From Candidatus Zipacnadum vermilionense (GTDB lineage Bacteria > Armatimonadota > Zipacnadia > Zipacnadales > Zipacnadaceae): a DNA stretch of 64,000 nucleotides. Positions 1,858-27,097 of the stretch are shown here, in pieces (position 1 is the stretch's first letter; every line of letters starts with the position of its first letter). The notes under the pieces are model-generated. The model had not been told where the DNA came from. It searched no databases and saw only the letters and a program-made list of their open reading frames with translations. The stretch lies in NCBI GenBank assembly GCA_029821755.1, contig JALGSV010000002.1, forward strand, positions 18,591 to 82,590. Direction: 5' to 3'. The position numbers and the translations under genes were made by a program.

Positions 1858-1924
1858 CAGGGGGTGAGGCTCCGCGGCTGGCGCGAGCAAGTCGCAGGCA
1901 TCGCGGCACTGGTGCGCGGCGACG

Positions 1925-2833: not shown

Positions 2834-2856
2834 GGTGGTGTAGGGCAGGATCTCTT

Positions 2857-2934
2857 CCGCGTGGGGCGGGCTTTCTAGCCCGCGTTCCCCGCTGGTGTCC
2901 GTCCCCGGGCGGGCTAGAAAGCCCGCCCCACGCG
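2857..2934. repeat. REP-like palindromic repeat, type A pair (CCGCGTGGGGCGGGCTTTCTAGCCCGC ... GCGGGCTAGAAAGCCCGCCCCACGCG)
   Basis: Two inverted copies of the 26-nt unit separated by 27 nt. The same unit recurs at 31027, 33827 (degenerate), 60941 and 63435/63487. Confidence 0.8.
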
Positions 2935-2940
2935 CACGTG

Positions 2941-7706: not shown

Positions 7707-7719
7707 GCCCGGCGAGTCT

Positions 7720-9726: not shown

Positions 9727-9735
9727 ACGGCGACT

Positions 9736-9765
9736 GGCCGGCCCGACAACTTCGCCGGGCCGGCC
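9736..9765. terminator. intercistronic hairpin GGCCGGCCCG-N10-CGGGCCGGCC
   Basis: Perfect 10-bp inverted repeat between the FN3 membrane-protein gene and the barrel gene on the minus strand. Confidence 0.4.
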
Positions 9766-9778
9766 GAGGAGTCGGCGG

Positions 9779-10840
9779 TTAGGACGAGGCAGGTGGGAAG
9801 ATGATCTGCGTGAAGTTCGCGTAGGCGCTGACTGCCTGGGTGGTATAGACCGCCGCGATGCGGTAGCGATACCGTTCCCCAGAGGTCACGTTGTTGTCGA
9901 AGAAGCTGGTCGCGCCCGGCCCGACCAGCCCTCCGTCGATGAACTGGTAGGGCTGTCCATTCACGGAGCGTTGGATCTGATAGCGAAGCAAGGTCAGGTC
10001 CCCTACCTGTGGCGCCCGCCAGGTCAACTGAATGCCGCCCGTCTGTACCACCAGGGATACCGGGACCGGAGGCAAGGCCCCCTGCGGAGCCCTGTTATCG
10101 CTCTTGGCGCCGCTGATCACGAGAGCGAGCAGGCCGACGACCAGAACCGCGGCAATCCAAGAGGTATTGCGCTTGCGCGAGGGCGCTTTCGGCGCCGTCG
10201 CCTCTTCTCCGGCGATGGCCCGCGCCACCTGCCCCACGGCCTCCCGGACCGCCTCCTTAATGAGCGGCTGGTCGGAGCCGGCGTACTGCGTCACCAGCCG
10301 CGATTCCCCTACTACCTTGAAGGTCCGCTCCGAGGTCGGCGTAGCCGAGGCCTCGCCAGTCTGCGTGTTGAAGTTGGCCCCCACGGCGTACAGCTCCCCG
10401 GCCAGGCTGATCTTCGCTTGCTTGGGATACTCGGTGATGACCAGGATCTCTACAGTGACTTGCAGGACGGCGTCAGCCCCCAGCGCGTGCCCGATCACCA
10501 CGGCTGCCGAGGGGCTCGGCGGGGCAGTCTCCACCTGCGCGGGCAACACCCGACCCTCCGATATGGCGCGGCGCACTAGCGGGGAAGTAGCACTGAAATC
10601 TAGCCCGGCCAAGCCCTGCTTGCCGGTGATGCCCAGGACCAGGTCGTCCGAGATCCACCTGGACAGCCGCGCGTCGCCCCGGCCGCTGTGATCGGATACC
10701 GGCAGCACCAGTATCTTACGCGGCCCCTCCTCCTGCGCCCGCACCGGCCCGGCTGCAACCGGTACCAGCGTGGCGATGAACGCTGCCATCAGTAGCCAAT
10801 ATAGGGTGCGGCACAGCCTGCTTCTTAGAATTACGGTCAT
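9779..10840 (-). CDS. single-pass membrane protein: periplasmic LpoB/TolB-N/CsgG-like N-domain, TM helix, C-terminal fibronectin type III domain
   Basis: Signal peptide, ILVLPVSDHSG...LGADAVLQVTVE pattern, TM helix WIAAVLVVGLLALVI, FN3-like tail. Paralog of the 18784..20670 gene. Confidence 0.5.
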   Translation of the reverse strand: MTVILRSRLCRTLYWLLMAAFIATLVPVAAGPVRAQEEGPRKILVLPVSDHSGRGDARLSRWISDDLVLGITGKQGLAGLDFSATSPLVRRAISEGRVLPAQVETAPPSPSAAVVIGHALGADAVLQVTVEILVITEYPKQAKISLAGELYAVGANFNTQTGEASATPTSERTFKVVGESRLVTQYAGSDQPLIKEAVREAVGQVARAIAGEEATAPKAPSRKRNTSWIAAVLVVGLLALVISGAKSDNRAPQGALPPVPVSLVVQTGGIQLTWRAPQVGDLTLLRYQIQRSVNGQPYQFIDGGLVGPGATSFFDNNVTSGERYRYRIAAVYTTQAVSAYANFTQIIFPPASS

Positions 10841-11193
10841 TGCTTCCGGCCCCCTTGATTCGATGAGGTCAAGTTGTTGTGACCACCGGAATGCGCCGAT
10901 GGCCGCGCCAGGACTCGCATCTGCTCACCGCGGCAGGGGCCTTACCCCGGTGCCGCTGGTGCTGTCTCGCAGGGCCCGCCCCTGCGTCAGGGGCACGTTA
11001 CTGCGCCCCTCCCTCGACCGGTCCCGGACTCCCCCGGGATCAGCCTTTCCACTTGCCCAGTCGCCCGCAACCTCCCCTCCCCACCGTCCGGGCGATGTGC
11101 CGCGCGACGGCCCCCTCCTCCTCAGCGAGCGGGAACGAGCGCGGCCGCTAGTGCCGACTGCGGCCTGCGCACGGGCCCAGATACGAGCCTCGC

Positions 11194-14064
11194 TTACCGC
11201 GTCACCTCGAAGCTGGTGACCAAGCTGTTGGCCTGGCCGCTCTCCGGAGAGCGCGCAGTGATCTGGCACAGGTAGCGCCCGGACGGCACCCGGGTCCCGC
11301 TATCGCTCCGGGCGTTCCATAGTACGGTGTTGACCCCTGCGGTCCCCACCTGCCCGATGCTCACGCGGCGGATGACCACGCCGGCGATGTTACGGATCAC
11401 GACGTCCACACTCGCCGACGACGCCAGCGCATAAGTGAGAGCGAGTTGCCCCCCCGGCGCGGCCTGCGCTTGGACGCTCGTAAGCAAAGCGGCCGCCGAT
11501 CCCCGCGGCTGCGCCACTATCTTGAACAGCCGGCTTCCCTCTTCCATCATCTGGAAGGAATACGCCGCCGTTGTGCGCATGTAGCACCGCGTGCCACTGG
11601 CCACATCCTCCAGGATCAGCGTGTACTTCTCCGGCACCGCCGACAGGTCCGGCCAGGCCACGGCCAGATTGCGCTGGGCGCCGGCGGAGGTAACCTGCAG
11701 GTACCAGGTCTTCTCATTGCCGTCGTCGGCCTTAAGGTCCACCATGCGCTGCTCTCCGCCGCCTCCGGCGGAGACGAAGGCCGCCTGCAGACCCGTGCCG
11801 AAGGGCGAGGGCGGTGCGAGCAGATCCCGAGCATCCGCCCCATCCTTGGCCTCGCGTGCCACCCCGAAGGCCCGCACCATCGTCGCCGCACCTCCACCGC
11901 TGACGGTGATCCCCGCCCGCCAGCCGTTGGCCGCTGGGCTCACCTGGGCTATCGGAGCCGCGCTTACGCCCACCGCACTGGGCGGCGGCACCAGCAACTC
12001 GGTATCGTCATACGCCAAGATCCAGTAGCCCACGAACGGGTCCAGCCGTACCTTGGCTAACTGCTCCTCCCACCCATACTGCCTCGTCATCGGGTCGTAA
12101 TCAAACACCGTAGGCTGCAGCAGCGCCCGGCCGATCGCCTCCGCCATGGTCAACTGCCCACTGTCGGAGCTGATCACCTGCATGTCCCGCAGGTAAACTG
12201 GCAGGATGAACGGGTTCCCGATCTGATTCCAGCCCTTGGTCAGCGAGATGCTGACCGACGTGAGGCTCGGCACCGGCTGGGCGTCCGCCGGCAGCACGAT
12301 CTGCTGCTGCGCCCGGTTTAGTAGCCAGTACCCCTTCCCCACCGCCACGTTGGTCACAAAGGGGTTGGGGAACCAGCGATAGATGAGCGACAGCGGGTCC
12401 CAGCGAATCAGCGCTCCGAGTTGTCCCGGCTGCAACCCGCCCAGGCTCTGGAAAACGTGTTCCGCGTCGCTGTTGGTGAACTCGTAGGGGATGGAGATCA
12501 TCTCCAGCCCGTCGGGTGAAGGCCGCGGATTGATCACTGGGACCGAGGGTATGGTGATGGTCCGGTCCACCGCGCGCCCCCGGGGTCCGGTCAAACCCAC
12601 CGTCACTACTCCCGGCCGCGCCCCGCTGGCGCTGACATTCCAGACTGCCCCCACGAACCCGTCCCGCGGGATCGCCCCGAAGGCCTGGGTTTGCGGCTGC
12701 GTATCCGGTGACAGGGTCAACCCCTCCGGCAGCCTGATGCTCGCGCTGGTCCCCGCCAGGGCGGATGCGCCGAAGTTGTCCACGAAAATCCCCATCGGGA
12801 AGGGCGAGCGCCCCTGCCCGTCGGCCAGGTAGCAGCTCTCGACGATGTCCGGAGTCGAGGGATCGTCTCCGGCGGCTTCCTGCAGGCGCTGCGGGCCGTA
12901 GCCCATCGTCGCGAAAGTCGGCTCGTAGTTGGCCGTCGAGGCCCCAAAGGCAAGGTATGTCACGTACCGTCGCGAAGCGCCCGCCGGAAGGTTGAGCTCA
13001 TTCCACTTGACTCCCACACCCCAGTCCTGCCCCACGATAGACAGCGCCGGGTTCGGGACGAAGTCGAAGTTCGCACCCGCCAGACGCGCCCACATCCCAA
13101 TCTCCACTGCATCCGGCACCCCCGCCGAGGACCCGGCCGTGTTCCGCTGGCGTACCTCCGGCGCATCGAGTACACCTTTTACCGAGATCAGCGGGTTAGT
13201 GGGATCGTCGTACGCCACCCAACCGGTCGGCATCACCCCGGCGCCCCCCGACAGCACGCGCTCGTTGCGGATAGTCGTCCCGTCCGGCAGTATGACCGAC
13301 GTCCCGTCGCGTACGCCGGCCCCGCCGAAGCCGGTGTCGAACCCCCAGCGCACCCCTACACTATGTGGCTCGGCGGTGGTGTTGGTCACGATAAGCTCGA
13401 GCATCAGCGCGTCGCCCACCAGCTCGTAATTGTGGTAGACAGTCAACGAGTCGTCTATCGGGACTTGAAGCGGCACCACCGGCGGCTCCACCGGCGGCTC
13501 CACCGGCGGCTCCAGCGGGTCGTCTATGTCACCTGTGTCGTCTCCGCCTTGATCGGTAAGCGGCACAAGCGAAGTTCCCCTCGCTGCGCGGGTGGTGGCG
13601 GTCAGCGGCACCGGCCAGTAGCTGGGCAGCGTACCGGGATCGGCGGCCGTCTCTGCCTCGTTCATGGCCGCGTACGTATCGAACAGTAGCGCCTCGCCAT
13701 CTTCTACCGTAGCATCCACGGAGAACTGCAAGAAGGAGGTGAAGCCGGTAAAGTCGTTCGTATCGTTGAACGCCTTGCTGGCGATAGCCACGTCCTCATC
13801 GCCGGTCCGAGTGGGGTCGCCCCCCCGGGGGGCGAGCCGTCCCGTCAGCAATTGGAACCGGCCCGCCGGCCGAACCCAGAAGTCAGTCCCCACGGACACC
13901 ACTTGCGGTGCGCCGATCTGCATCCGCATTAGTCCGCCGGGCTGGGAGATGTCCAGCATCGACTGGGCCGCGGCCGGGCCCGACAGCGCCACTGCCGCGA
14001 AAGTGCAGACCAGGGCCATCACACCTGCGATGAGCATCTTCTTCGATATAAGGCTACAGTGCAC
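11194..14064 (-). CDS. giant secreted protein (956 aa) with shared C-terminal modules and FlgD-Ig/T9SS-like C-terminal domain
   Basis: Signal peptide, Pro-rich linker (PVEPPVEPPV). A C-terminal ~450-aa region is shared with the 14098 and 20934 gene products, including module A (SIPYEF...RW.P..Y..P...GYWL) and the CTD ...RNIAGVVIRRV...WNARSDSGTRVPSGRYLCQITAR. Confidence 0.6.
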   Translation of the reverse strand: MHCSLISKKMLIAGVMALVCTFAAVALSGPAAAQSMLDISQPGGLMRMQIGAPQVVSVGTDFWVRPAGRFQLLTGRLAPRGGDPTRTGDEDVAIASKAFNDTNDFTGFTSFLQFSVDATVEDGEALLFDTYAAMNEAETAADPGTLPSYWPVPLTATTRAARGTSLVPLTDQGGDDTGDIDDPLEPPVEPPVEPPVVPLQVPIDDSLTVYHNYELVGDALMLELIVTNTTAEPHSVGVRWGFDTGFGGAGVRDGTSVILPDGTTIRNERVLSGGAGVMPTGWVAYDDPTNPLISVKGVLDAPEVRQRNTAGSSAGVPDAVEIGMWARLAGANFDFVPNPALSIVGQDWGVGVKWNELNLPAGASRRYVTYLAFGASTANYEPTFATMGYGPQRLQEAAGDDPSTPDIVESCYLADGQGRSPFPMGIFVDNFGASALAGTSASIRLPEGLTLSPDTQPQTQAFGAIPRDGFVGAVWNVSASGARPGVVTVGLTGPRGRAVDRTITIPSVPVINPRPSPDGLEMISIPYEFTNSDAEHVFQSLGGLQPGQLGALIRWDPLSLIYRWFPNPFVTNVAVGKGYWLLNRAQQQIVLPADAQPVPSLTSVSISLTKGWNQIGNPFILPVYLRDMQVISSDSGQLTMAEAIGRALLQPTVFDYDPMTRQYGWEEQLAKVRLDPFVGYWILAYDDTELLVPPPSAVGVSAAPIAQVSPAANGWRAGITVSGGGAATMVRAFGVAREAKDGADARDLLAPPSPFGTGLQAAFVSAGGGGEQRMVDLKADDGNEKTWYLQVTSAGAQRNLAVAWPDLSAVPEKYTLILEDVASGTRCYMRTTAAYSFQMMEEGSRLFKIVAQPRGSAAALLTSVQAQAAPGGQLALTYALASSASVDVVIRNIAGVVIRRVSIGQVGTAGVNTVLWNARSDSGTRVPSGRYLCQITARSPESGQANSLVTSFEVTR

Positions 14065-14097
14065 TGATCGCTCTCTCCTCTCGCCGGCTTCCCTGGA

Positions 14098-17000
14098 TTA
14101 GGGGAATACCTCGAAGGGCCGGATGGCTTGCACCGTCTGGCCCTTGTCCGTCCGGGCCGTCAGGCGCACCACGTAGCGCCCTGCCGGCACCTTGCTGCCG
14201 CGATCGCTGCGGCCGTTCCACACCAGCAACTCCACCGCTCCCCCCGCCGTGAGCTGGGGGCTGAACTGCTTGATGAGCAACCCCGAGATGTTGCGGATCT
14301 CCGCTGTCACCTCGGCAGGCTGCGACAGCGCGTAGGTAAAGGCCACGCCGCCGCCCGTTATCCCTTGCGCGCTGACCCCGCTCAGGCTCAACCCGCCCAC
14401 CGCTTCCGTCGAGGCGATGATCCGTACCCGCCGCGTGCTGCCCTGCGGCCCCGAGTTGAAGCTATAGCCCGCCGAGGTCCGCATGTAGATCTCCTCACCG
14501 GTGTCCAGATCCTCCAGCAGGAGGGTGACCCCGGCGGGGACGGTGGCGTTCAGCTCCGGCCAACGCAAGGACACCTCGGAGTTGGGCTGGGCGCAGGCGA
14601 TCTCCATATCCCATTCCTGCCGCCCCGAAGCGGGTCTAACTATCTGCGCGTAGTACGCCGACTCGTCGCCCCAGTCCCTCTCCACCAGCGCTGCACGCAG
14701 GCTGCTATCCACCGCCGGCGGCTTCCCCACAGCCCAGAAGGGGCTGTACGCGGCCGTCGCCTTGGTGTTCATGCCGATGTAGTTGCATGGTTCGACTACG
14801 CCGTTGGCGGTCGCCACCAGTTGTAGCCGCCATCCCTCGCCACCCTCGGTCGGCCGCGGCGTCGCCGTCTGCGTGGCGATCACCGGCGCGTAGATCACCA
14901 GCGTCGTATCCTTGCGCACCCGCAGCCAGTAGCCCTGGAACGGCTCCAACATCGCCGAGAAAGGATCTGCCGAGAATGTATAGTAGCCGCCCGAGGCGGT
15001 GCTGCGGAACCCGAAGAGAACGCCGTCGGTCACCCCGGAACTGATCGCTTCGGCCAGGGTCTCTCGCTTGCCGGCGGTCACGAACTGCACGCTGCCGAAA
15101 TCGACCGGAGTAAGGAAGGGACAGCCGATCATGTTCCAGCCCCGCGGCTCGCGGCTTCCCATGAGTAAGTTGATGTCGTACTGCGTCAGCCCCGCGACCG
15201 GAGCCCCGGTGATGTTGAGAGTCGTCGCCCGCGGCAGGCGCACAAAATAACCTATTCCCGCCGGCGGTTGGGGCACAACCTGTGCTGGCCCCGATGCGTC
15301 CGGCGGGTCGAAGGTCGCGTAGGGGTCGGGGTACAGGTGATACTGAGTGTCCCCCGGCCACCAGCGCGCCAGCCGGACCTCCTCGCTGGATAGCCCGAAC
15401 ACCTGGCTGGGGTCAGGGAAGCTGCCCGGCGCGTAGGTGTAGGGCAGCGAGAACAAGTGGATGCCCGCGTCCATCCTGGGCAGGGCCACCCGGAAATTGG
15501 ACAGCGCGGTCACCGACCGGTTGCCGTCCTGGTCCGCCACCGAAAGTGTGAGCTGATGGCTGGCCAGGGTTAGCGACGTCGTTACCTGGAAGGTGAGCAC
15601 GCCGCTAGTCGCGTCGAAACTGTAACCGGTGAGCTGCCGGCCATCGATCGCCAGCAGAATGCTGGCGGGGTCGATCCCGGTGCCGGTGTCGATGAGGGAG
15701 GCGCGGATCAGCGGCGTCCGGGTGTTGATGGTCGTGCTGTTCTGCGGGAAGATAATGGTCACCGTCGGCAGATCAGTGTCCCGTCCCGCCTGCAAAGTCA
15801 AGCGACCCTCCCCATAGGTGTTGCTGGGCGGAGAGGTGTCGGTTGGCAGCGGCTTGGCCAGCATCAGTATAATACGCCGCAGGTCCGCCCCAGTCCGACT
15901 AGGGTTCTCTGAGTACAGCAGGGCCGCGGCTCCGGCGACATGCGCCGCACTAGCGGACGTGGACAGGAAGGGGGTATAGGCGGCCAGACTGGTCGTCACC
16001 CGGTCCGGCCCCACCATATTCGGCTTGCGCGAGCCACCCACGGTCGGCCCCTGGCCGCTATAGAGCTCAATGTCGTCTATCCCCGGTGCCGGCGGCACCC
16101 CCGCCGTACCCGCGGTTGCCCCCACCGTCAGGGCCCGGGACGACATGGCGGGGATTGGCAGGCTGGTGGCGGCTACCGCCACGCTGACCGGCAGGTTCGC
16201 CGCCGGCGTATACAACTGGAACTTGTCCGGTTGCATCAGATCCGCCCGCACCGCCTTGATCCGTAACTCATGGACTCCCGCCGTGATGACCTGTGCGATC
16301 AGCGTTTCCCGCGGGGGTGTGGCGCCGTTCTGGGACACGCCCGAATCCGCGATCAGGGTCGTGCCCTGCCACAATTGCAGGTTGTAATCCTGCGAGGTAA
16401 CCGCTCCGGCGGTTTCATACCATGATAGAAAGGCCGTAAACTCGCCCGCCGGCAGGTCGAGGCTGACACCGGTATTGGTCTCGATGTCGCAGAAGGTGTC
16501 GCTGTTCACGTCAACAAAGGTTCCCTGCCAGTGGCGCTGGGCCAGGTCTCCCGAAGCCTGCACCCATAGCACCCCGCTGTCGCTCGCCGTGGCCACTGCC
16601 TGCGAGATCATGTCACTACCGTCGAAGGGCCCGTCGACCGTCCCCACGGTGTTGACGACAGCGGTATACCGGTTCGTAGCTACGTAGTTGATCGCCTGCC
16701 GCAGGGAGAGCGCGGTGTCGACCGCGATGAGGATGAAGTTAGCCTGCGGAGCCATGTCCGCGGCCACCTCCGCGGCGGCCGTCCCCAAGGCATCGGTGCC
16801 CATGGTGCCGTCCGCGCGGAAGGACACTTGGGCGGGCGTAGGGATCTCTGCGTCGACAGCTCCGGCAAACCCCTCCGCGATGATGCCGATATTGGCGCCA
16901 GCCCCCGCGATGCCGAGGGACTGGTATGAGGAGGCGTTCGTTAGCTGTACGCCTTCACTCACGTTGGCCCCGAAGCCAAAGATCGCCTGCTGCGGCCGCA

Positions 17001-17424
17001 CGGAGCTCCCCTGCGAGGCGTGCATCCCGGCGAGAGGCAGCCGAGGCCCCACCACCGGCGTCGGAAGGGTAACGCAGGCCACTCCGGGCAGCGCTGCCAG
17101 TGCCTGTAGCTTGCCGCCGGCGATCTGCCCTTGCACCCGCTGCGCCGTCTCAAATTGTATCTGCAGGCCAGCCAGCGACAGGCTGGCCAGCGAGGCTGGC
17201 TGCCTCTGGTCCAGCCACACCTCCACCACTACCGGACGTCCTGCCCAGACAGCGGACATGGCATACGGCTGCAGCACTCCGCTGAGCGATCCGGCAACGG
17301 CCGGTGCCCCCATCAGCGCCCCCGGCCCCACTGCCAGCAAGAGAGCGGATGACATCATAACGATACTCGGCCTCAGGTGACTCGTCGCTTGCTTATCGGA
17401 CTTCACCTCGCAGACCTCCCTCAT
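14098..17424 (-). CDS. giant secreted protein (1108 aa) with subtilisin-like (S8) domain and shared C-terminal modules plus FlgD-Ig-like CTD; alternative start 17358
   Basis: STSASAAHVAGAAALLYSENP closely matches the S8 Ser-region GTSMAAPHVAGAAAL. The Asp and His motifs were not clearly found, so it is possibly degenerate. The C-terminal region is paralogous to 11194 and 20934. Confidence 0.55.
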   Translation of the reverse strand: MREVCEVKSDKQATSHLRPSIVMMSSALLLAVGPGALMGAPAVAGSLSGVLQPYAMSAVWAGRPVVVEVWLDQRQPASLASLSLAGLQIQFETAQRVQGQIAGGKLQALAALPGVACVTLPTPVVGPRLPLAGMHASQGSSVRPQQAIFGFGANVSEGVQLTNASSYQSLGIAGAGANIGIIAEGFAGAVDAEIPTPAQVSFRADGTMGTDALGTAAAEVAADMAPQANFILIAVDTALSLRQAINYVATNRYTAVVNTVGTVDGPFDGSDMISQAVATASDSGVLWVQASGDLAQRHWQGTFVDVNSDTFCDIETNTGVSLDLPAGEFTAFLSWYETAGAVTSQDYNLQLWQGTTLIADSGVSQNGATPPRETLIAQVITAGVHELRIKAVRADLMQPDKFQLYTPAANLPVSVAVAATSLPIPAMSSRALTVGATAGTAGVPPAPGIDDIELYSGQGPTVGGSRKPNMVGPDRVTTSLAAYTPFLSTSASAAHVAGAAALLYSENPSRTGADLRRIILMLAKPLPTDTSPPSNTYGEGRLTLQAGRDTDLPTVTIIFPQNSTTINTRTPLIRASLIDTGTGIDPASILLAIDGRQLTGYSFDATSGVLTFQVTTSLTLASHQLTLSVADQDGNRSVTALSNFRVALPRMDAGIHLFSLPYTYAPGSFPDPSQVFGLSSEEVRLARWWPGDTQYHLYPDPYATFDPPDASGPAQVVPQPPAGIGYFVRLPRATTLNITGAPVAGLTQYDINLLMGSREPRGWNMIGCPFLTPVDFGSVQFVTAGKRETLAEAISSGVTDGVLFGFRSTASGGYYTFSADPFSAMLEPFQGYWLRVRKDTTLVIYAPVIATQTATPRPTEGGEGWRLQLVATANGVVEPCNYIGMNTKATAAYSPFWAVGKPPAVDSSLRAALVERDWGDESAYYAQIVRPASGRQEWDMEIACAQPNSEVSLRWPELNATVPAGVTLLLEDLDTGEEIYMRTSAGYSFNSGPQGSTRRVRIIASTEAVGGLSLSGVSAQGITGGGVAFTYALSQPAEVTAEIRNISGLLIKQFSPQLTAGGAVELLVWNGRSDRGSKVPAGRYVVRLTARTDKGQTVQAIRPFEVFP

Positions 17425-17508
17425 GGCCGCCTTCGGGCGGTCCCTTGCTTCGTATTCTGCTGCTACACGTACTTGCTCCGCCCCCGATCCGTCCCAACCC
17501 CGAGTTCC

Positions 17509-18699
17509 CTACCTCCCACCCCGCGCCAGGAAAGCCATTCTCTGCAGGTAAGCCCGCAGGAGCAGTGCCCAGTCGGCCGTGAAACCCCCGTCCGGCTCCG
17601 CCCCATACCCCTGCGCCCACGACCGTATATCCAGCGGATAGAATATGCCCAATCCGGACCCAGTTTGCTCGCTGTCGTCCGGTTCCTGCCTCCAAGCCTC
17701 CACGGTCGCGTTCTGCGCCGCCACACTCACCTGCTTGGCCAGGTCCGCCACCTCCGGCACGGTAGTCGTCTCTGCCAGCGCCTGGGCCAGCGAGGTCACG
17801 GCTACCAGCTCCCGCCGCGGCCCCCAACCCGCCGCCTCTCCCCGGGCCAGGGTCAACTCCGGCGCGAGCCCCTCCACCCGCGGCAGGGCCGTCTGCGCCA
17901 AACTCCGCAGGGCCTGCGTCAGCGCCGGCAGGCGCCCCAAGTCCACCGCTACCAGACTCGACGGTACCTCCCGCCGCTCCCCCCAAAACATTCGGGCCTG
18001 CCGCGAGGCCTCCAGGGCTAAGTCGCGGCCGCCTATCTCCGGCCGGCGAAGCAACTGTCCCAGAATGGCTCCCCACGGCAACCCCGGCGAGTACAGCAGT
18101 CCCGGCGCCGCCACCATGTATCGCGCTCGTCCCACCAGCCGATCCGCCACCTCGACGCTGCCCGAGTAACAGCAGTCCAGCGATACCAACTCAATCGGCC
18201 GGGGTTGCCCCACACCCAACGCCGCGGCCACCGTGCGAATCTCCAACCGTCCCGCCGCATTCTGCGTCTCCTGGTCCTCGGGCGCCGGCGAGACCCCATG
18301 CGCCAGGATGAGCAAAGCGTAGCGTTCTGCCGGGGCCTCCTCCCGTACCCAGCCGACAAACTCCGCCAGCGCGGGTGTCCGACCCATGTCCGCTGCCACT
18401 TCCGTAGCCGGTCCGGCCGGACCACCCATGAACACCCAGCGCCGCGCCATCTTGTGCCGGGTCTCGTCCTCCACCTGCGCCGCCACCACCACGCGGCCCG
18501 CCCCTCCGGGCGTCTCCAGAGCACGGCGCATCTGCTCCAAGTACCCCTTCGCAGCCTCCTGCAACCCCCCCCGGGCCCGCAGATAGGCCATCACCGTCCA
18601 AGCGGCCGGCTCCGACGCGCCAGATCCCGGTCCGGCCGCCGCCACCACCAGTCCCACGGCCAGCAGCAACACTCGGATTGTGTGCGCCACACCCCTCAC
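17509..18699 (-). CDS. clostripain-like cysteine peptidase (family C11), secreted
   Basis: Signal peptide. WTVMAYL N-terminal pattern, His motif LLILAHGVS and Cys motif LVSLDCCYSG at the spacing typical of C11 peptidases. Confidence 0.5.
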   Translation of the reverse strand: MRGVAHTIRVLLLAVGLVVAAAGPGSGASEPAAWTVMAYLRARGGLQEAAKGYLEQMRRALETPGGAGRVVVAAQVEDETRHKMARRWVFMGGPAGPATEVAADMGRTPALAEFVGWVREEAPAERYALLILAHGVSPAPEDQETQNAAGRLEIRTVAAALGVGQPRPIELVSLDCCYSGSVEVADRLVGRARYMVAAPGLLYSPGLPWGAILGQLLRRPEIGGRDLALEASRQARMFWGERREVPSSLVAVDLGRLPALTQALRSLAQTALPRVEGLAPELTLARGEAAGWGPRRELVAVTSLAQALAETTTVPEVADLAKQVSVAAQNATVEAWRQEPDDSEQTGSGLGIFYPLDIRSWAQGYGAEPDGGFTADWALLLRAYLQRMAFLARGGR

Positions 18700-18783
18700 T
18701 GCTGCTGCTCGCTTATCAACCGGCCCTCCCGATCTCGACTTACCGGTCGGAACTCTCCCGGCGCCAACCTGTGCCCGCCACCG

Positions 18784-20670
18784 CTACCGCCCCGGCGTAC
18801 GACGCTCGCGCCACCAGCCCCGCACACCCGTCGGCCGTCCGCCCTCTACCGCCGCCGCTGCCGGCCCGGGCGGCAGGGCCACCGTCTTGAAGCTTGTCCG
18901 CTCGCTCAGCACCCACGGCAGAGTGCGTGAGCCGCCTACCTTGCACGAAGGCTTCGTCTCCCCCGAGGTCCGACTGGCAACGACCCACCACATGGTGGTG
19001 TCTCCCGGGAAGATGAAGTCGTTGAAGGTGTACCGTAGCAGCGTCTGCCCCGTCGCCGCCGTGCGCGTGGGGCTCGCCGTTACCAGTTGCGTCAACTCCC
19101 GGTCGAGATAGACCTGCACCTGGTATTGGTCCGCGCCCCGTGACGGCATCCATTCAAAGGTAGCTGCCTGGGGATTAACGGTGGTGCTTCCCAGTGGGCG
19201 CTGCTGCACCGCCGGCAGCGAATAGGTTACTGGCGGCGTAGCCGGGCTGGGGTTGCCCAGCGCGTCCGGCGGATCTACGGCGAAGGTAACGGCGATGAAC
19301 TCCTGCTGGGGATTGGGCAATATCGGTCGCCACGGGTCTACCAGCCGCCGCACCTTGTAGTAGTAGGTGTTGCCCGCTACCAGTTCGGCGTGGTTGTACG
19401 TCGCGGTCAGGGTGCCGGTCTCCTGCTCCCCGGCTCGGCTGAAGAAATCGAAGGATATGTCGGAGGTGATGCCCACCTGTCGGTCCTGCGTGTCCTCGTA
19501 GTAGTTCAGATGCGCGTCCGGAACGATCGCCACCAGCGGCCCGCCGTCCAGCGTGCCGTCGCCCATAGCGGTAGCGTCGGCGACAAAGCCGGCGCTACGC
19601 CCTCGGTAGAACAGGAAGGCGTGCGTGTGTTCGGGGTCTGGGTTGAGGTTGCGGGAAATGTTCACCCGGATAACCGGCGTGGACCCCGGGAACTCCTGCG
19701 ACACCAGGGCACCGACCACGGGCGGGGTGATGTTCTGGTTGCCGGTGGCGGTAGCGACGATCCCGAGGATCAGAGCTCCCGCGGCCAACAAGCGCAGGCT
19801 CGAAGTGGTCTTGTGCCCCTTCTGGATGGACTTGACCTCCGAGGGCGGGCTGTACAGCACGTAGACCCGGTCCCCAATGCGCGGGGTCCTACCGCTGACG
19901 ACCTTCGCCTGCGAGAGACGCACCTGCACTCCCGTCAACTCGATCACGCCCAGCGGGCGCATGACCGTCTGCTCCAGGCTGCGATCCCAGTAACCCCGCA
20001 TGACCAACAGCCGGGTACCTGCCCCCACTCCGTCGTTAATGCCCAGATCCGTCGTAATGACGCCCTGGTCATCGACCAGATAGATGCTGCCATGGCGAAT
20101 CCGCGTTCGCTCCATCTCGGCGACCGCCGCTTCCGCTACCTGGCGCAGCGCCTCGTTTATGACCGGGACCAAGTCTCCATTGAACCCGGGAATCGCCTTG
20201 GTGTTGACCTGCACGGCCGCGCCACTTAGCACCGCTCGGATAGGGATGTTGTAGGCGCGCAAGTCCATGGCCACGCTTACCGCCCCATTGCTCCCGTCGG
20301 GTGCTAGCTTGGTGAGAGTAGCCGTGACCACCACATCTGCCTGCAGGTCCTGGCCCACCCGCAACTGCATGCTCTCATTCAGCGGGGGAGTCATATCCTG
20401 CGCCGTGAGTTCGCGCTGCAAGTCTGCCTTGGAGATGACGCGATAACTCCTGGAGTCTTCGAGGGCGAGGGCCAGCGCGTCGGTAGCCTTGGCGCCGATC
20501 ATCGGATCACGCCCGCCGGTCGCGTCCGTCACCGGAATGACGACGGCAGCCGTGACCTCCCGGGCCTGGGCACAGGCCGGCGTCAGATAAACGCGTACTG
20601 ACGAGGTCATGAGAGCTACAACGAGTAGTGACAGCGACCAGTACAGCGGGCGACAGCGTAGTATGTGCAT
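18784..20670 (-). CDS. single-pass membrane protein, paralog of 9779..10840 (LpoB/TolB-N-like N-domain, TM, FN3-like C-terminal region)
   Basis: Signal peptide; AAVVIPVTDATGG...DVVVTATL pattern matching the paralog; TM helix LRLLAAGALILGIVATA. GGGAGGGAG lies ~10 nt upstream of ATG. Confidence 0.5.
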   Translation of the reverse strand: MHILRCRPLYWSLSLLVVALMTSSVRVYLTPACAQAREVTAAVVIPVTDATGGRDPMIGAKATDALALALEDSRSYRVISKADLQRELTAQDMTPPLNESMQLRVGQDLQADVVVTATLTKLAPDGSNGAVSVAMDLRAYNIPIRAVLSGAAVQVNTKAIPGFNGDLVPVINEALRQVAEAAVAEMERTRIRHGSIYLVDDQGVITTDLGINDGVGAGTRLLVMRGYWDRSLEQTVMRPLGVIELTGVQVRLSQAKVVSGRTPRIGDRVYVLYSPPSEVKSIQKGHKTTSSLRLLAAGALILGIVATATGNQNITPPVVGALVSQEFPGSTPVIRVNISRNLNPDPEHTHAFLFYRGRSAGFVADATAMGDGTLDGGPLVAIVPDAHLNYYEDTQDRQVGITSDISFDFFSRAGEQETGTLTATYNHAELVAGNTYYYKVRRLVDPWRPILPNPQQEFIAVTFAVDPPDALGNPSPATPPVTYSLPAVQQRPLGSTTVNPQAATFEWMPSRGADQYQVQVYLDRELTQLVTASPTRTAATGQTLLRYTFNDFIFPGDTTMWWVVASRTSGETKPSCKVGGSRTLPWVLSERTSFKTVALPPGPAAAAVEGGRPTGVRGWWRERRTPGR

Positions 20671-20933
20671 TGCCTTGGATCTCCCTCCCGGCGGGACCGT
20701 TGCAGAATCTCGGCGCTTTCGCGCCTGCGCTCGGGACCGGGCTTATGCCCGGACCCCGGCGCTTCCCCCGTTGCCGGAGGAAAACGTGAACGTGCGTCCT
20801 CTCCACGGGCCCAGGCGCTTCTCTCCACCCCCGGCTGCCAGCCCTGCCCCGTGGACCCCTCCACACAACGCTCGTCAGTATAACACAGCCCTCGGGGCGG
20901 CTGCAACGACTCCTTCGGCGCGGCGCGCCCTGT

Positions 20934-23900
20934 CTACCTCCCCAGCCACACGCCGGTCACCGCCTGCGCGACTTGGCCCTCCGGCGTCTGCGCCTTCACG
21001 GTTACCAGGTAACGCCCCGCGGGCGCCGCCGACCCCGCGCCGTTCCGCCCGTTCCAGGTCAGCGTTTGCACGCCCGCCCCCTGCGGCAGGGAGCTTACCA
21101 GCCGGCGCACCACCACACCACTTAGATTGCGGATCTCGACCGTCACCGCCGATTCGGCGCCCAGCGTGTAGCACAAGCTTACCCGACCGGCGCCCGGCGT
21201 CGCGCTCAGCGCGGAGACCACCGCCGTCCCCGGCTCGGAGACGACCGCTGTGATCTTGAAGCGCCGCTCGCCCTCCTGGGCGGTGAACCGGTATCCCGCG
21301 CTGGTGCGCATGTACACGCGCTGCCCGGTGGCGAGGTCCTCCAGCACTGGCCGCACCTCGTTAGGCAGCAGGGACAGATCCGGCCAGCCCACCACCACCT
21401 GCGCACCCTTCTGGTTGGTCTGCACCGAGACCACCCAGCTCTGCCGCGCCGCCGCCGCGCGCATGTCCACGGCCAGCGGGCCCGGTGCGCCGTCCTTGAC
21501 CAGCGCTGCGTAGATGTAGGGCTGGAAGTCCACCGCGGGCGGCTTCAACTGGTCCGTGAGGCTGTTGTAGGTCGCCTTGCCCTGGGCCGAGACGCCCAGG
21601 ATCGTCGCCTCATCTGCGCAGCCCGCGCCGCGCACCGTCAGCGGCAGCAGCCAGCCTCCGGCCGGGGCGTCCATCCCCCACCGCGCCCGCACCGCGCTCG
21701 TCGCCGGCCCGCTCTCCACCGACAGCCCGCCGGTCGCCGCGCTCACCCACAGGGTCAGCGGCTCACCTGCCCGCAGCCAGTACCCCACCCACGGGTTCAT
21801 CGTCGAAACCATCCGGTAGCCGCCCAGCACATAGGCGAACAGCGTTCCCTGGAGCTTGGGTGGGCTGGAGGTGATGGCCTGCTGCAGAGACATCATCACG
21901 TGGTTCTCATCCTCAACCTGCACCGTCCCAAAGTCGATCTGCTGGTCGAAGGGATCGCCAATAATGTTGAAGCCGGCCTTGACGTGAATCGGGTACGGAT
22001 CGCCACCTGGGGTCCCCGCCCGTGTCAGGTCAACCCGTGCCGGCAGATTCAGCCAGTATCCACTCCCCAGCCGGAAGTGATCGGCCGGTGCCTGCGGATA
22101 CAACGCATACCGGTTAGCCTGCGGCAGCCACGTCGCTAGCATCAACCCGCCACCGCCCTGCCCGAGCAGCCGAGCCGGGTCGTTGACGTCCACCCCACCC
22201 ACTTCCCGGGTGGGATAGTCGTAGGGCATCGATATCAGCGACAGGCCGGCAGCGAACGTGTGTAGGGAGGACAGCGTGAAGTTGACGCTCGTCGTCTCTC
22301 GCTCGGTGACCACGGTTACCGTCCGACTCGGTGGGGTGATCGTGAAGCCCGGGGCCTCCGGCACCACATCGACGACCCCGGCGGGGGCGGACGGGAACCG
22401 ATAGTTGTACGGATCGCCCACCGCGGGAGTGGTGAACTGCGGGTCTGACTGCACCGCCGGCACCACGTCCACCCCGTTGACGCGCAGATGGACGGTGACC
22501 CCCCCGATGGGGGTCCCGCTCGCAGCGCTAACGATCTTCCCGCTCAGTGAACCGTCCGCCTCGGGCGAGAGCGTAATCGTCACCTGCGTGATGCCGGACG
22601 GCATAACCACTTGCCCGGCTTGGGAGCCCACCCCGAATCCTGGCGCCGAGGCCGTCACGGTATAGGTGCCGGCCGGTACCTCCCGCGTGACCCTACCGTT
22701 GCCGTCGGTCACCCCCGAGGCCACCACCGTCGTGCCTTGCAACACCTGCACGGTCGCGCCGGCCAGCGGCTCTGGGCCGAGCGTTCCGGGGCGCTGCACG
22801 GTGATCTCTAGGTTACCAGGCGCCGCACCGAGCTGGAAGTCCGCCCGGGTGCTAGTGCTGGACGTCACGTCCACCATCTGCTCGGCGGTCCCGTAGCCGA
22901 TGTCGGTGCCGTCCGCCTCCGCGATATACGTCCCCGGCGGCACTCCTATTGCGTACGTCCCGTCGGCTGCGGTGGTGGTGGAGCCTACCTCGTCACCCCG
23001 CACAAACCCGGTTGCCGGCGGAGTAGCGGCCACTGCCTGGTAAATGGTGATCTTGACGTTCCCCAGCACCTGCCCCGTAGCCTGCGCGGTGACCGTGCCG
23101 GAAATCGCCCCCGGCGGCGCCGCGTTGAGGACGAAGTCCACGACATCGGGAGCCTTTGCGGCATGTGCCAGGTGGACCCCGGCGTCCCGCGCCAGTTGGT
23201 ACTGCGGATGGAAGGCCTCTAACAGGTAGTTGCCGGGCGCCACGCCATTCATGACGTAGGTGCCGTCACTCTGGCAGCGCACCGCGTACTTGACCTCCCC
23301 GCCTTGCAGGGCCCGGACGATGGGACTGGGATTCTGAATTGGCTGCCCGTCCATCGCCAGTACGCGTCCCTGGAAGCTGCCGGTCGTCATCCAGATGTAG
23401 GAGTTAGTTAGCAGACGTGACCGGTGGTTGGCGCAGTGCGCCCCGGCCCCTGGCGCGTGGTACCCACGGTGGATCTGCTCAAAGCCAAAGGCCAGGTAGA
23501 CCAGTTGCGCGCCGTTCGTCACGTCCTGGAAATGCAGGCCGCCCGCCGGCCCGTCATAGGCGAAGTCCCCCTCCGCGTTGTACCCGTACAGCTTCACCGC
23601 CGGCGCCAGCACTGTGATCGCGTCCGGGAAGTAGGAGTTGTTGGCCGCATCCTGCTTCCACCCATCGGCCACGTCGTTGGTCACCCGGGGCGTCTCCATG
23701 TTCACCGGCGCGTCTTCCGCGTCGTAGCCGCCGCCCCAGATCGGCCCGGCCACCGGGTCGGTGGCCTGTCCGCCCAGGGTGAAGCCGTAACCCATCGCCC
23801 TGTCGGTGACGAAGTTGGCGTGCAGCGTGTTGGTGAAGAAGGTGTTGGCAGTGGTCCCATTGAGCGTCAAGGCCCAGCCGATGTCCTGACCGCTCACGAA

Positions 23901-25892
23901 CAGCTTCCCGCCCGTGCTCATGTAGTTGGACAAGTCGGCCTGCACCGCCGGGTCCACTAGGGAGCCGGAGTTGCTCGGTACCCAGACATTCCCGGTGTGC
24001 GGAGCAGCCCAGACGATCATATGCTCCGACACCGGCACCCGCCGTGTAGGTTGCGCGTCCGTCGGATCACTGGCCTGGGCCTCTGGGTCGAGCTGGAACT
24101 CGATGGTGGGCTTGTAGATCGAGTAGACGGTAGCGGGGACGCGCCCCCGGCAGATCACCCGCCAGGTGTCATATGACAGGCCGAAGAACCCGGCGATGGA
24201 GTCCGAGCTAATGGTGCCGCGCGCGGTCTGCTCGAAGCCCGGATTAGACCGGTAGTAGCTCTCCACCGGGAACCCGACCGGGATGGTGCTGTTGTCACCC
24301 AGGCGCGAGATGAACTTCTGCCCCTCGCAGTAGTCGTCCACGAACAGGACGCGCCCGGTCGGGGTGAACTCCCGGGTACTGAAACCGAACAGCGAGTCGT
24401 ACCGCAGGCTGTTGCCCACGTTATCCGACGCCTCAATATCGATGATGTAGTCGTGGGGCGCTAGCTCAGTGGTGAAGGTGCCCGCGTACGTCCCGTCCCC
24501 CTCGGGGTCCGTCAACTCCACCGTGCCCACGATGACCGATTCCATTTCCAGCCACCGGTTTCCCTCGGTGAAGCCGCTGTCAAAGACCAAACCGGTGCTC
24601 ACCGCATAGAGCTTGCGGTCGGGGTCGTGCAGAATGGCCGTGACCTGCCGCACGCCACTGCCGGCATCCGAGACCGGGACACTGATCTGCACGTCCGCGC
24701 CGGGAGCCGGAAGCCGGTTGTCCACCCGGGGGATCTCTCCCAGCCGCGGCGGCAGGACGTCGGCCAGCATGTGAGAGTACAGGTCGATATTGTCGCGGGA
24801 GGGGCTGGTCTTGTCGGACTCGTAGACCACCCGCAACTCTTGCCGGTCCAGCGGGACGCTGATCGTGGGGTTAGTGTTGCTGAAGGTGTCGCTGGGGTCG
24901 GCCTGGGCGCTGAGCATGGCCGGGGAGCCCGTCGTCTCGCCCACGTCGGACATGCGCCAGATGTTGAAGTTGTGGATGCTGTCTCCGGCCCCGGTATACC
25001 GGTCGGAGGCAAAGGCGAGGGTGGCTGCGGTGCTCTGCCAGGAGGGCTGCTTGTCGTTCGCGCCAGCGTCCCCGCCCCCGTCGGACAGGGCCGTCGCGAC
25101 CGTCCCCTGGTCGTCTATCTGGTAGACGCGCGTGACGCTGCCCATGCGCGCGGTGTAGGCGATCAGATTGGAGTTCGGCTCCCAGGCCGGGTCACTGGCC
25201 CCGAGGCCCGAGGTGAGCTGCACCGGCGCGCCCGAGCCGTCCGAGCGCCCCTTGTAGACCTGCCGCGTGCCGGAGGCGTCGGAGTCGAAGGCAATCCAGT
25301 TCTCATCCGGAGACCAGGTGGGATGCCGCTTGTTGCCGGCCCCCGTTGTCACCTGTCGCACCGTGCTGGTGGCAATCTCAAAGATGTAGATCTGGTAGGT
25401 GCCGCTCTGGTCGTTCGCGAAAGCGAACATGTTCCGGCTGGGGTCGTAGGACGGCTCGCGGGAGTCCCCGGGGAGATCGGCGATCTGAATCTGCTCGGTC
25501 CCATCCGGCCGCATGATCCAGAGGGTGTAGTGGGCGTTGGCCGGGAGGGTCGGGTCGATGCGGCCGTTGCCATCGGCGTCCACGCCGTTGGAGGCGAAGC
25601 CGATGCGGTTGGTAGTGCCGCTGACCCACGCCGTCGGGTCTACCTGATCACTATCCGGGGTGTTGAAGGTGAGGTTGGCGTCCGGGGCCGCCTGCTGGGC
25701 GCGCACCGCCGCCGGCAGAGGCGGTAAAGCAGTGGTGATGACTGGCCGTCCCCCGCCCGGCCCGCTCCAGCCCGCACTGGTCGCACCAGGCAGCGCGACG
25801 CCTACGGCGGCCACGGCGAGGATGAGAGCGGAAACGATCAGGAAATAAACAAGAACCGCACGTCGACGGTGGCCCTTGCGCAACACTATCAC
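20934..25892 (-). CDS. giant secreted protein (1652 aa): TolB-like beta-propeller (PD40 repeats), carboxypeptidase-regulatory-like domains, shared C-terminal modules, FlgD-Ig-like CTD
   Basis: PD40-like repeats (IAFDSDASGTRQVY, LIAYTARMGSVTRVYQ). CarboxypepD_reg-like segments (GTYTVTASAPGF, GNYLLEAFHPQY). The C-terminal 450 aa are paralogous to 11194 and 14098. GTG start region with AAGGAG. Confidence 0.6.
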   Translation of the reverse strand: MIVLRKGHRRRAVLVYFLIVSALILAVAAVGVALPGATSAGWSGPGGGRPVITTALPPLPAAVRAQQAAPDANLTFNTPDSDQVDPTAWVSGTTNRIGFASNGVDADGNGRIDPTLPANAHYTLWIMRPDGTEQIQIADLPGDSREPSYDPSRNMFAFANDQSGTYQIYIFEIATSTVRQVTTGAGNKRHPTWSPDENWIAFDSDASGTRQVYKGRSDGSGAPVQLTSGLGASDPAWEPNSNLIAYTARMGSVTRVYQIDDQGTVATALSDGGGDAGANDKQPSWQSTAATLAFASDRYTGAGDSIHNFNIWRMSDVGETTGSPAMLSAQADPSDTFSNTNPTISVPLDRQELRVVYESDKTSPSRDNIDLYSHMLADVLPPRLGEIPRVDNRLPAPGADVQISVPVSDAGSGVRQVTAILHDPDRKLYAVSTGLVFDSGFTEGNRWLEMESVIVGTVELTDPEGDGTYAGTFTTELAPHDYIIDIEASDNVGNSLRYDSLFGFSTREFTPTGRVLFVDDYCEGQKFISRLGDNSTIPVGFPVESYYRSNPGFEQTARGTISSDSIAGFFGLSYDTWRVICRGRVPATVYSIYKPTIEFQLDPEAQASDPTDAQPTRRVPVSEHMIVWAAPHTGNVWVPSNSGSLVDPAVQADLSNYMSTGGKLFVSGQDIGWALTLNGTTANTFFTNTLHANFVTDRAMGYGFTLGGQATDPVAGPIWGGGYDAEDAPVNMETPRVTNDVADGWKQDAANNSYFPDAITVLAPAVKLYGYNAEGDFAYDGPAGGLHFQDVTNGAQLVYLAFGFEQIHRGYHAPGAGAHCANHRSRLLTNSYIWMTTGSFQGRVLAMDGQPIQNPSPIVRALQGGEVKYAVRCQSDGTYVMNGVAPGNYLLEAFHPQYQLARDAGVHLAHAAKAPDVVDFVLNAAPPGAISGTVTAQATGQVLGNVKITIYQAVAATPPATGFVRGDEVGSTTTAADGTYAIGVPPGTYIAEADGTDIGYGTAEQMVDVTSSTSTRADFQLGAAPGNLEITVQRPGTLGPEPLAGATVQVLQGTTVVASGVTDGNGRVTREVPAGTYTVTASAPGFGVGSQAGQVVMPSGITQVTITLSPEADGSLSGKIVSAASGTPIGGVTVHLRVNGVDVVPAVQSDPQFTTPAVGDPYNYRFPSAPAGVVDVVPEAPGFTITPPSRTVTVVTERETTSVNFTLSSLHTFAAGLSLISMPYDYPTREVGGVDVNDPARLLGQGGGGLMLATWLPQANRYALYPQAPADHFRLGSGYWLNLPARVDLTRAGTPGGDPYPIHVKAGFNIIGDPFDQQIDFGTVQVEDENHVMMSLQQAITSSPPKLQGTLFAYVLGGYRMVSTMNPWVGYWLRAGEPLTLWVSAATGGLSVESGPATSAVRARWGMDAPAGGWLLPLTVRGAGCADEATILGVSAQGKATYNSLTDQLKPPAVDFQPYIYAALVKDGAPGPLAVDMRAAAARQSWVVSVQTNQKGAQVVVGWPDLSLLPNEVRPVLEDLATGQRVYMRTSAGYRFTAQEGERRFKITAVVSEPGTAVVSALSATPGAGRVSLCYTLGAESAVTVEIRNLSGVVVRRLVSSLPQGAGVQTLTWNGRNGAGSAAPAGRYLVTVKAQTPEGQVAQAVTGVWLGR

Positions 25893-26023
25893 TCCTTGGC
25901 GGTTACGTTAGCTGCTGCGATGTAGAGTAGACCAGACCGGGCGTTCTCCCCCGAATCCGTTTCCGCAGGACACGGCCACATCCAGCCGGCCTGCGAACCC
26001 GCCAGCCCAGTGTCGCGGTCTGG

Positions 26024-26052
26024 AGTATAGCACAGGAAACCTGCAATGGCAA
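26024..26052 (-). promoter_or_regulatory. putative sigma70-type promoter (TTGCCA-N17-TATACT) upstream of the 20934..25892 gene
   Basis: Hexamers read on the minus strand about 130 nt upstream of the start codon. Confidence 0.3.
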
Positions 26053-26236
26053 GTCAAACAGCAAGCCTATCACACTTCAAACTAGAGAGCGCACCGGCAA
26101 GAATCCCGGCCTTTCGTGAGGGCAGATGTTTCGCGGAGTCTATCCCGCGGAAGATCCAGTCGCCCCAGTTCGACCTCCGCCCTCGACCCCACCCTCCCCG
26201 TCCGCAGTCTGAGGTCTGAAACATTGGGGCTAAGCC

Positions 26237-27097
26237 CTACTCCCGACACACAATCAGCGTCCCCGGCACGTCGCGCTGTACGCCGCTGCAAATCCAGATG
26301 TTGATCCCCTGCTTCACGGCGAACTGCACGGCTTCCTTCTGAATGACCTGCGGGAAGGGGTCCCAGGAGAAGAGGTCGGAGGCGCGTACCTCAGACAACT
26401 TGACGGCTTCCTCATGAACCCGCGGGTCCTTGTCGTAGACCCCGTCCACGTCGGAGAACATGGTGGTCTCTTCCTCACCCAGTGCCGCCGCCAGGGCCAC
26501 CGCCGTTAGGTTCGATCCGCCCCGCCCCAGAATGGAGGTCTCATCCCGCCCCGTCTCCTTGTCGTAGTAATAGCCCTGAAATCCCGCCACCACGGGCACG
26601 ATCTCCATCTCGATCAGGTCCAACAGGTGGGCCTTGTTCACGCTATCCATCAGGGCACCGATGGGCGTCGGGGTAGTGACCAGGCCGGCCTCGCGCCCAG
26701 TCATGGACCGCGCCCGGCAGCCGAGGTCCTCCAGAACGATGGCCAGGGAGGAATTGGCCCGCAACTCCCCGCTCATCAGCAGGCGGGCGTACTCGCGGGG
26801 GGCGGGACTGGAGGACAGCGCGGCAGCCAGTTGCTCCAGCTTGTCGGTCGCCCAGTCAAAGGCTGAGACTACAACTACCGGCACCATGCCCTGGTCACGC
26901 AGGGGGAGGATGAACTTGCGCGCTACCTCGTGGAGTCGCTGGGCGCGGGCGATGTTCCGCCGCTGCGCCAACAGGCGGTAGATATCGTTGGCGGAATTCT
27001 GACGCTTGCACTCCTCCAGTAACCGCTCCTCATCCGGGCCGTAGCGCTGGTGACCTTGCAGGGTCAATCCGCCGAATTTCAACACAGGGGTCCGCAA
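26237..27097 (-). CDS. amino-acid kinase family protein, aspartokinase-like catalytic domain without ACT domains
   Basis: VLKFGGLTL N-terminus and VVVVSAFDWATDKLEQLA resembling the aspartate kinase pattern VVVVSAM-G-T--L. Only ~290 aa, with no regulatory ACT region. Probable TTG start with GAGGGAGG upstream. Confidence 0.5.
   Translation of the reverse strand: MRTPVLKFGGLTLQGHQRYGPDEERLLEECKRQNSANDIYRLLAQRRNIARAQRLHEVARKFILPLRDQGMVPVVVVSAFDWATDKLEQLAAALSSSPAPREYARLLMSGELRANSSLAIVLEDLGCRARSMTGREAGLVTTPTPIGALMDSVNKAHLLDLIEMEIVPVVAGFQGYYYDKETGRDETSILGRGGSNLTAVALAAALGEEETTMFSDVDGVYDKDPRVHEEAVKLSEVRASDLFSWDPFPQVIQKEAVQFAVKQGINIWICSGVQRDVPGTLIVCRE

Follow-up and report, generated by a model that had tools for sequence, protein, structure and literature searches.

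In a 64,000-nucleotide stretch of Candidatus Zipacnadum vermilionense, of the phylum Armatimonadota (assembly GCA_029821755.1, contig JALGSV010000002.1, positions 18,591 to 82,590 of the forward strand; hereafter the window), the gene at 17509..18699 on the minus strand encodes a cysteine peptidase of 396 amino acids (aa) that belongs to the clostripain family (C11, clan CD). Our results showed that this protein keeps the catalytic residues of its family, carries an export signal and holds a conserved operon position, as gene 3 of seven same-strand genes that run from 25892 down to 7720 (-). The order of the cluster is module protein A, a CsgG-like protein, the C11 peptidase, module protein B, module protein C, a second CsgG-like protein, and an outer-membrane protein. 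Judging from these features, we put at about even the chance that the peptidase is a dedicated maturation protease, which would act by limited proteolysis on at least one of the envelope proteins encoded with it. Taken alone, the protein is an unremarkable, though divergent, representative of a very large family of peptidases; the novelty lies in its setting, since one C11 subfamily has a fixed place in a deeply conserved, unannotated envelope cluster of a poorly studied diderm phylum.

Family membership and active site of the C11 peptidase

The Pfam model Peptidase_C11 (PF03415) matches aa 100-272 of the protein with 54.5 bits (curated cutoff 25.8; E = 1.8e-14), a sequence match far beyond chance. 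The search of NCBIfam revealed no matching C11 model and only a sub-threshold caspase match. Against PDB sequences, phmmer and profile searches with the protein and its subfamily returned C11 chains only: 6mzo (P. distasonis zymogen), 6n9j, 6nag, and 5l20 (B. thetaiotaomicron), 9cip (clostripain), 3uws and 4yec (PmC11), and 5dyn (B. fragilis). Identity to the solved structures is 14-18%. An AlphaFold2 model built with 11 homologues had a mean predicted local distance difference test score (pLDDT) of 83.4 and a predicted template modelling score (pTM) of 0.84, and the top 11 PDB matches that Foldseek found for it were all C11 chains. Seven full-length C11 chains aligned with E values of about 1e-15 to 1e-17 and template modelling (TM) scores of 0.60-0.73, with the C11-specific C-terminal domain included. 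The fold predicted by the model is a clan CD alpha/beta/alpha sandwich followed by the C11-type C-terminal domain, which begins at about aa 250. By every formal feature that we tested, in sequence as in predicted structure, 17509..18699 encodes a true member of family C11.

A preliminary description of this DNA had assigned a catalytic His to the motif LLILAHG (aa 129-135) and a catalytic Cys to SLDCCYSG (aa 173-180), spaced as in family C11, and the alignment bears this out. HMMER places HG of the query on the catalytic His-Gly of the solved C11 chains and D-C-C-Y on D-A-C-Y. Because DCCY is aligned on DACY, the nucleophile is the second Cys, Cys177 (18169..18171 (-)), and the S1 Asp is Asp175 (18175..18177 (-)); the catalytic His134 is encoded at 18298..18300 (-). 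In PmC11 the dyad is His133/Cys179 and the primary S1 residue is Asp177, whose counterpart in clostripain is Asp229 (PMC4850288). The spacing from His to Cys is 43 residues in the C11 protein versus 46 in PmC11.

An exhaustive profile search yielded 14,271 C11 representatives at E<=1e-3, of which 117 reached E<=1e-30. Conservation was read from an alignment of 47 stand-alone members of the closest C11 subfamily. His134, Gly135, and Cys177 are present in 47 of the 47 sequences, and Asp175 in 45, with Glu in the other two. This is the pattern of retained catalysis, and the enzyme is predicted to be catalytically competent.

The gene has a GTG start. Its product begins with a signal peptide (aa 1-28; 18616..18699 (-)), MRGVAHTIRVLLLAVGLVVAAAGPGSGA/SEP, which has a positive start, a hydrophobic core, and a GSGA/S site. 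In agreement with the signal peptide claimed earlier, this N-terminus looks like a Sec signal peptide, and the protein does not look like a lipoprotein because its N-terminus has no Cys. An equivalent N-terminus occurs in the full-length homologues P0003, P0004, and P0012-14. The database copy P0001 (360 aa) begins at Met37 and thus lacks the signal peptide as well as a piece of the first beta-strand (WTVMAYL); since the homologues support 396 aa, the long start is the better one, and the start of P0001 was probably called wrongly. Beyond the signal peptide we found no membrane anchor in the C11 protein, nor a match to the immunoglobulin-like (Ig) C-terminal domain of FlgD_ig type (hereafter CTD) that ends the module proteins; the model ends in the helical C11 C-terminal domain. 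Three overlapping plus-strand open reading frames (17377..18021, 17645..18169, and 18205..18930) were rejected as high-GC artefacts, as all support from family, homologues, and structure falls on the minus frame.

Conservation of gene order

Loci were found by two independent routes, one starting from C11 homologues and the other from homologues of the 450-aa module that proteins A, B, and C share, and both recovered the same gene order. Among the scans made on the C11 route, that of genome contigs gave two loci and that of metagenomes four, one of the latter duplicating L003; an exact-match query with P0001 yielded no contig. All seven genes are present in seven loci (the window, L002, L003, L004, L007, L009, and L013), and partial versions in seven more; L002 is a metagenome-assembled genome of Candidatus Zipacnadia, Armatimonadota. 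The gene directly downstream of the C11 gene encodes a module protein in 14 of the 14 independent loci where it is readable, and the gene directly upstream encodes a CsgG-like protein wherever it can be read. When the search started from the module, a C11 gene stood directly upstream wherever the contig reached far enough.

C11 identity across the conserved loci falls to 29-34%, and the cluster orthologs in L002, L012, and L013 share 29-44% identity with the window proteins, which indicates deep divergence. The flanks of the cluster are AA_kinase/S13 and Ppx-GppA genes in the window, S1/CoaE and UvrB genes in L013, and unassigned genes in L002. Since the flanks vary while the gene order stays, the cluster has been kept as a unit over deep divergence. 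A functional link between the C11 peptidase and its CTD-bearing neighbours is well supported by these genome comparisons, because the gene order is strictly conserved in 14 independent loci, with C11 identity as low as about 30% and differing flanks. A literature search found nothing on this cluster, on FlgD-type CTDs in Armatimonadetes, or on LptD in Armatimonadota.

The preliminary description had seen the gene as embedded among giants that bear CTDs and had proposed a cognate processing or sorting protease. The first statement is right for B and C, which lie downstream, and for A, all of which carry the CTD; the immediate upstream neighbour (18784..20670 (-)), however, is CsgG-like and has no CTD. 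As to the second, the functional tie is supported by gene order in the 14 loci, but sorting has no direct support.

The module proteins

Protein A (1652 aa, 20934..25892 (-)) has a signal peptide, a TolB/tricorn-like beta-propeller, CarboxypepD_reg repeats, and FlgD_ig according to Pfam and NCBIfam; the shared module occupies aa ~1195-1652 (20937..22310 (-)) and ends in an Ig domain of FlgD_ig type. Protein B (1108 aa, 14098..17424 (-)) consists of a degenerate subtilase (S8) head, a Big_7 Ig domain, and the module at aa 636-1108 (14101..15519 (-)), of which the FlgD_ig CTD is encoded at about 14101..14403. Protein C (956 aa, 11194..14064 (-)) has a signal peptide, an unassigned head, and the module at aa 497-956 (11197..12576 (-)), which also ends in a FlgD_ig CTD.

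The C-terminal ~450 aa of the three proteins match the module hidden Markov model (HMM) and are paralogous at 30-32% identity, a stretch longer than the last 100-residue Ig domain. Pfam recognises only this final FlgD_ig domain and gave no match for the two sub-domains that precede it. One of them has the motifs GWNMIGxPF and GYWL and the other WPxL...LxLEDLxTGxxVYMRT (within 14101..15519 (-) in B, with equivalents in A and C). All three proteins end in the soluble Ig domain, with no C-terminal transmembrane tail. A CTD-only HMM run over about 230 kb (the window plus the loci) detected the Ig CTD in no genes other than those at the positions of A, B, and C. By their sequences, the giants resemble three paralogous components with a 450-aa module in common more than cargo with a short tag.

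Lineages differ in the N-terminal heads of A, B, and C, which have been exchanged or are missing; all retain the 450-aa module. In L005 (1549..4311) protein B has a Peptidase_C39_2 head, L006 has a head-less protein B of 499 aa (1906..3405) and a CTD-only gene of 156 aa (3439..3909), and the ortholog of protein A in L007 (3096..5360) is just 754 aa long. The S8 head of window protein B (aa ~150-540) was aligned with subtilisin DY: Asp32 has become Ala (IIAEG) and His64 has become Leu (LGTAAAE), the Ser is retained (STSASAAHVAG), and the Pfam S8 match covers the Ser region only. The close orthologs in L001, L003, and L004 have the same Ala and Leu substitutions and have lost the Ser too, the distant ones in L002 and L012 keep Asp, His, and Ser, and L010 has a strong S8 match as a split S8 gene. 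On this alignment the subtilase head of window protein B is a pseudo-protease, catalytically dead. As the S8 domain is dead in the window clade and absent or swapped elsewhere, while the C11 dyad is invariant, no catalytic protease of the cluster is conserved apart from the C11 peptidase.

Other genes of the cluster and of the window

The first of the two CsgG/TolB_N-like proteins (628 aa, 18784..20670 (-)) has a signal peptide, a CsgG-like region at aa 56-160, a hydrophobic helix at aa 288-310, and a beta-rich, Fn3-like C-terminal part. The Pfam CsgG model scores 21.8 bits on it (cutoff 20.8) and is matched in six of the seven orthologs. The second (353 aa, 9779..10840 (-)) has a signal peptide, an N-domain, a hydrophobic helix at aa 224-248, and a C-terminal Fn3 domain for which PDB matches were found (E = 3e-7). 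The two proteins match each other by blastp with E = 3e-7, and their N-domains are homologous (hhalign probability 97.6%); a PDB sequence search gave no match for the CsgG-like domains of either. One idea is that the 353-aa protein could be an LptE-like plug. In both paralogues, the basic residues flank the helix on its N-terminal side, at odds with a topology in which the N-domain is exported and the helix is in the inner membrane.

The outer-membrane protein (668 aa, 7720..9726 (-)) is built of a signal peptide, an invasin-like Ig domain (aa 42-139), a beta-jellyroll (aa 151-308), and a beta-barrel of about 22 strands that ends in ...GLATVF. This architecture is LptD-like, and a PDB sequence search gave no match for the barrel. 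Armatimonadetes are regarded as diderm and have genes for lipopolysaccharide (LPS) (PMC4072686), in keeping with a cluster that encodes an outer-membrane barrel.

Outside the cluster, the genes at 5083..5904 (-) and 5905..6714 (-) form an adjacent tandem pair, both matching the thymidylate kinase family. Two very large open reading frames, 39688..44004 (+) (1438 aa) and 48518..52102 (+) (1194 aa), had no Pfam match at E<=0.01 and do not have the CTD of the cluster.

Proposed role and alternatives

As a maturation protease, the C11 protein would be exported by Sec and would be soluble in the periplasm or released. It might then activate itself by cleavage in the flexible loop aa 138-153, between His and Cys, where pLDDT is low and where Arg151 (18247..18249 (-)) takes the position of the PmC11 autoprocessing site. 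PmC11 and clostripain cleave themselves in this loop after a basic residue (Lys147 in PmC11, Arg181/Arg190 in clostripain). With the His134/Cys177 dyad and an acidic S1 pocket formed on Asp175, the mature enzyme would probably cut after Arg or Lys. Its putative substrates would be one or more envelope proteins of the cluster, processed by limited proteolysis either within the periplasm or on the cell surface. The peptidase is a fixed part of a seven-gene envelope system of Armatimonadota, together with three module proteins, two CsgG-like proteins, and the LptD-like outer-membrane protein. The activation of other secreted proteins has precedent among C11 enzymes, as fragipain activates the B. 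fragilis toxin (PMC6964027).

Several observations weigh against this role. The (A/G)GDN(N/S)L motif of C11 enzymes supplies Asn50 of PmC11 to the S1 site, and the GDxxL motif after strand 1 has become RARGGL in the C11 protein and RxxGGL across its close clade, so that its cleavage specificity may differ from that of PmC11. A GDxxL-like form is retained in more distant members of the subfamily. Family C11 is not formally defined by this motif, and therefore membership stands. Of 11 close homologues, only about 7 have a basic residue at the PmC11-like autoprocessing position (R151), and the whole loop of P0011 is free of basic residues. Because the GDxxL motif is lost and the basic loop residue is not kept, Arg/Lys specificity at P1 and self-activation of the C11 protein are both things that we infer.

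The neighbours and the cluster as a whole add to these points. No conserved Arg or Lys was found in the inter-domain linkers of the 450-aa module, the D2-CTD linker included, and the invariant Arg residues of the module (R929, R982, and R998) are within predicted beta-strands. In every locus the C11 peptidase is the least conserved of the seven proteins (34% versus 37-44% identity in L002, 57% versus 63-74% in L003). A sigma-70-like promoter match lies 5' of the first cluster gene (26024..26052 (-)), the sole one in 7500..26300, a count at chance level (1.9 expected), and is weak evidence of co-transcription. Terminator-like matches, whose counts are also at chance level, do not occur within the intergenic gaps of the cluster. 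Finally, synteny is evidence of linkage, not of mechanism.

An alternative is a generic exported protease, used in nutrition, turnover, or envelope quality control, whose operon position would reflect co-regulation. Family C11 is very large and consists mostly of stand-alone secreted proteases (the 14,271 representative clusters at E<=1e-3), the C11 peptidase is always the least conserved cluster protein, and no conserved cleavage site was found in its neighbours. A generic function leaves it hard to explain, without a specific interaction, that the slot between the same two genes is fixed in 14 loci while C11 identity has fallen to 29-34% and the flanks have changed, and the invariance of the catalytic residues also speaks against it; we consider it unlikely.

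A more elaborate possibility is sorting in the manner of PorU. Within clan CD, PorU is placed in the gingipain family (C25), and the glycosylphosphatidylinositol transamidase (C13) is another member of that clan. As the cysteine-peptidase sortase of the T9SS (type IX secretion system), PorU offers a clan-level precedent (PMC4560394, PMC8545088). The C11 peptidase would cut the Ig-type CTD off A, B, and C and join the C-terminus so exposed to a glycolipid of the cell surface or to LPS; the lipid or the protein would be delivered by the LptD-like protein. The FlgD_ig-type CTDs are indeed just under the threshold of the T9SS tail model TIGR04183 (21 bits on protein A, cutoff 23) and resemble the CTD region of PorU itself, as the last 70 residues of the PorU model NF033707 match the CTD of the 1108-aa protein B (24 bits, cutoff 420). 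An LptD-like outer-membrane protein is encoded in the cluster, and LptD homologues can carry proteins to the surface (bioRxiv 10.1101/2022.12.21.521298, PMC12065857).

Most of what we found speaks against such sorting. The C11 protein shows no similarity to PorU or C25 and lacks both a membrane anchor and a CTD, and a scan of the seven cluster proteins with Pfam and NCBIfam detected no T9SS core component. The CTD occurs in three cluster proteins only within the ~230 kb sampled, unlike a general sorting tag, and what is conserved is a 450-aa module, not a short tag. In the D2-CTD linker no Arg or Lys is conserved, an Asp S1 pocket is ill-suited to the small-residue site of a PorU-like enzyme, and we know of no C11 enzyme that is a transpeptidase. 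We hold PorU-like sorting to be improbable, and the analogy with PorU, sortase, and archaeosortase arrangements drawn in the preliminary description has no direct support on these same grounds of anchor, CTD, T9SS parts, and linker.

There is likewise only a slim chance that the seven genes form an undescribed surface assembly or secretion system of Armatimonadota, in which A, B, and C would be exported or anchored through the LptD-like protein and its two CsgG-like partners and the C11 peptidase would cleave them and possibly transfer them, a PorU-like role. If true, family C11 would gain its first function in sorting or attachment, and the Ig-type CTD a use that does not depend on the T9SS. 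Lastly, although the neighbouring S8 domain became a pseudo-protease in the window clade and the canonical GDxxL motif is lost, a non-catalytic, structural pseudo-protease subunit of an envelope complex is hardly credible for a C11 protein whose His134 and Cys177 are found in 47 of 47 sequences and Asp175 in 45, with Glu in the other two.

Should the protease mature or attach its neighbours, it would define a physiological role for C11 enzymes outside gut Bacteroidales and clostridia and suggest a novel means by which bacteria construct their surface. It would also offer a small, testable set, seven genes and one catalytic Cys, for the study of envelope biogenesis in Armatimonadota.

Comparison with known systems

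The closest comparison is with PmC11, thetapain/iotapain, the 6mzo zymogen, and clostripain (9cip), which are in the same Pfam family and have the same His-Gly...Asp-x-Cys-Tyr arrangement (H134/D175/C177 here, H133/D177/C179 in PmC11). They are alike in size (~370-400 aa), in the clan CD sandwich with its C11 C-terminal domain, and in the export signal. PmC11 and clostripain self-cleave in the His-Cys loop, and the C11 protein has a flexible loop there too. It differs from them in its low identity (14-18%), in RxxGGL instead of GDxxL, and in the basic autoprocessing residue, which is not conserved. The characterised C11 enzymes come from gut Bacteroidales or clostridia, whereas this one is encoded in a seven-gene envelope operon of Armatimonadota. 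Fragipain, also a C11 enzyme, is known to carry out limited proteolysis of another protein that its own cell secretes (PMC6964027). No seven-gene cluster of this kind has been reported for it, however, and nothing points to toxins as substrates of the window peptidase.

PorU is also a cysteine peptidase and acts at the outer membrane on proteins with an Ig-like C-terminal domain (PMC4560394, PMC8545088), but it is of a different family, and its model NF033707 does not match the C11 protein. PorU has its own CTD and is held on PorV. It cuts at small residues, whereas the C11 protein has retained an Asp S1 pocket, as is typical of enzymes specific for Arg/Lys. The T9SS serves many scattered cargo proteins through the PorKLMN/SprA machinery, and the scan of the seven cluster proteins turned up no part of that machinery. 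Sortases, exosortases, and archaeosortases are membrane-embedded or anchored and act on cargo with a C-terminal motif and a transmembrane tail, in contrast to the C11 protein, with its signal peptide only and its predicted caspase-like fold. The C11 protein thus falls outside the PorU, sortase, and exosortase families.

Two further systems use other families (C1A and C25) and other substrates. Cwp84 cleaves the S-layer precursor SlpA of C. difficile, and gingipains mature type V pilins. Both resemble the proposed role in logic only, in that a dedicated cysteine protease matures surface subunits of its own cell.

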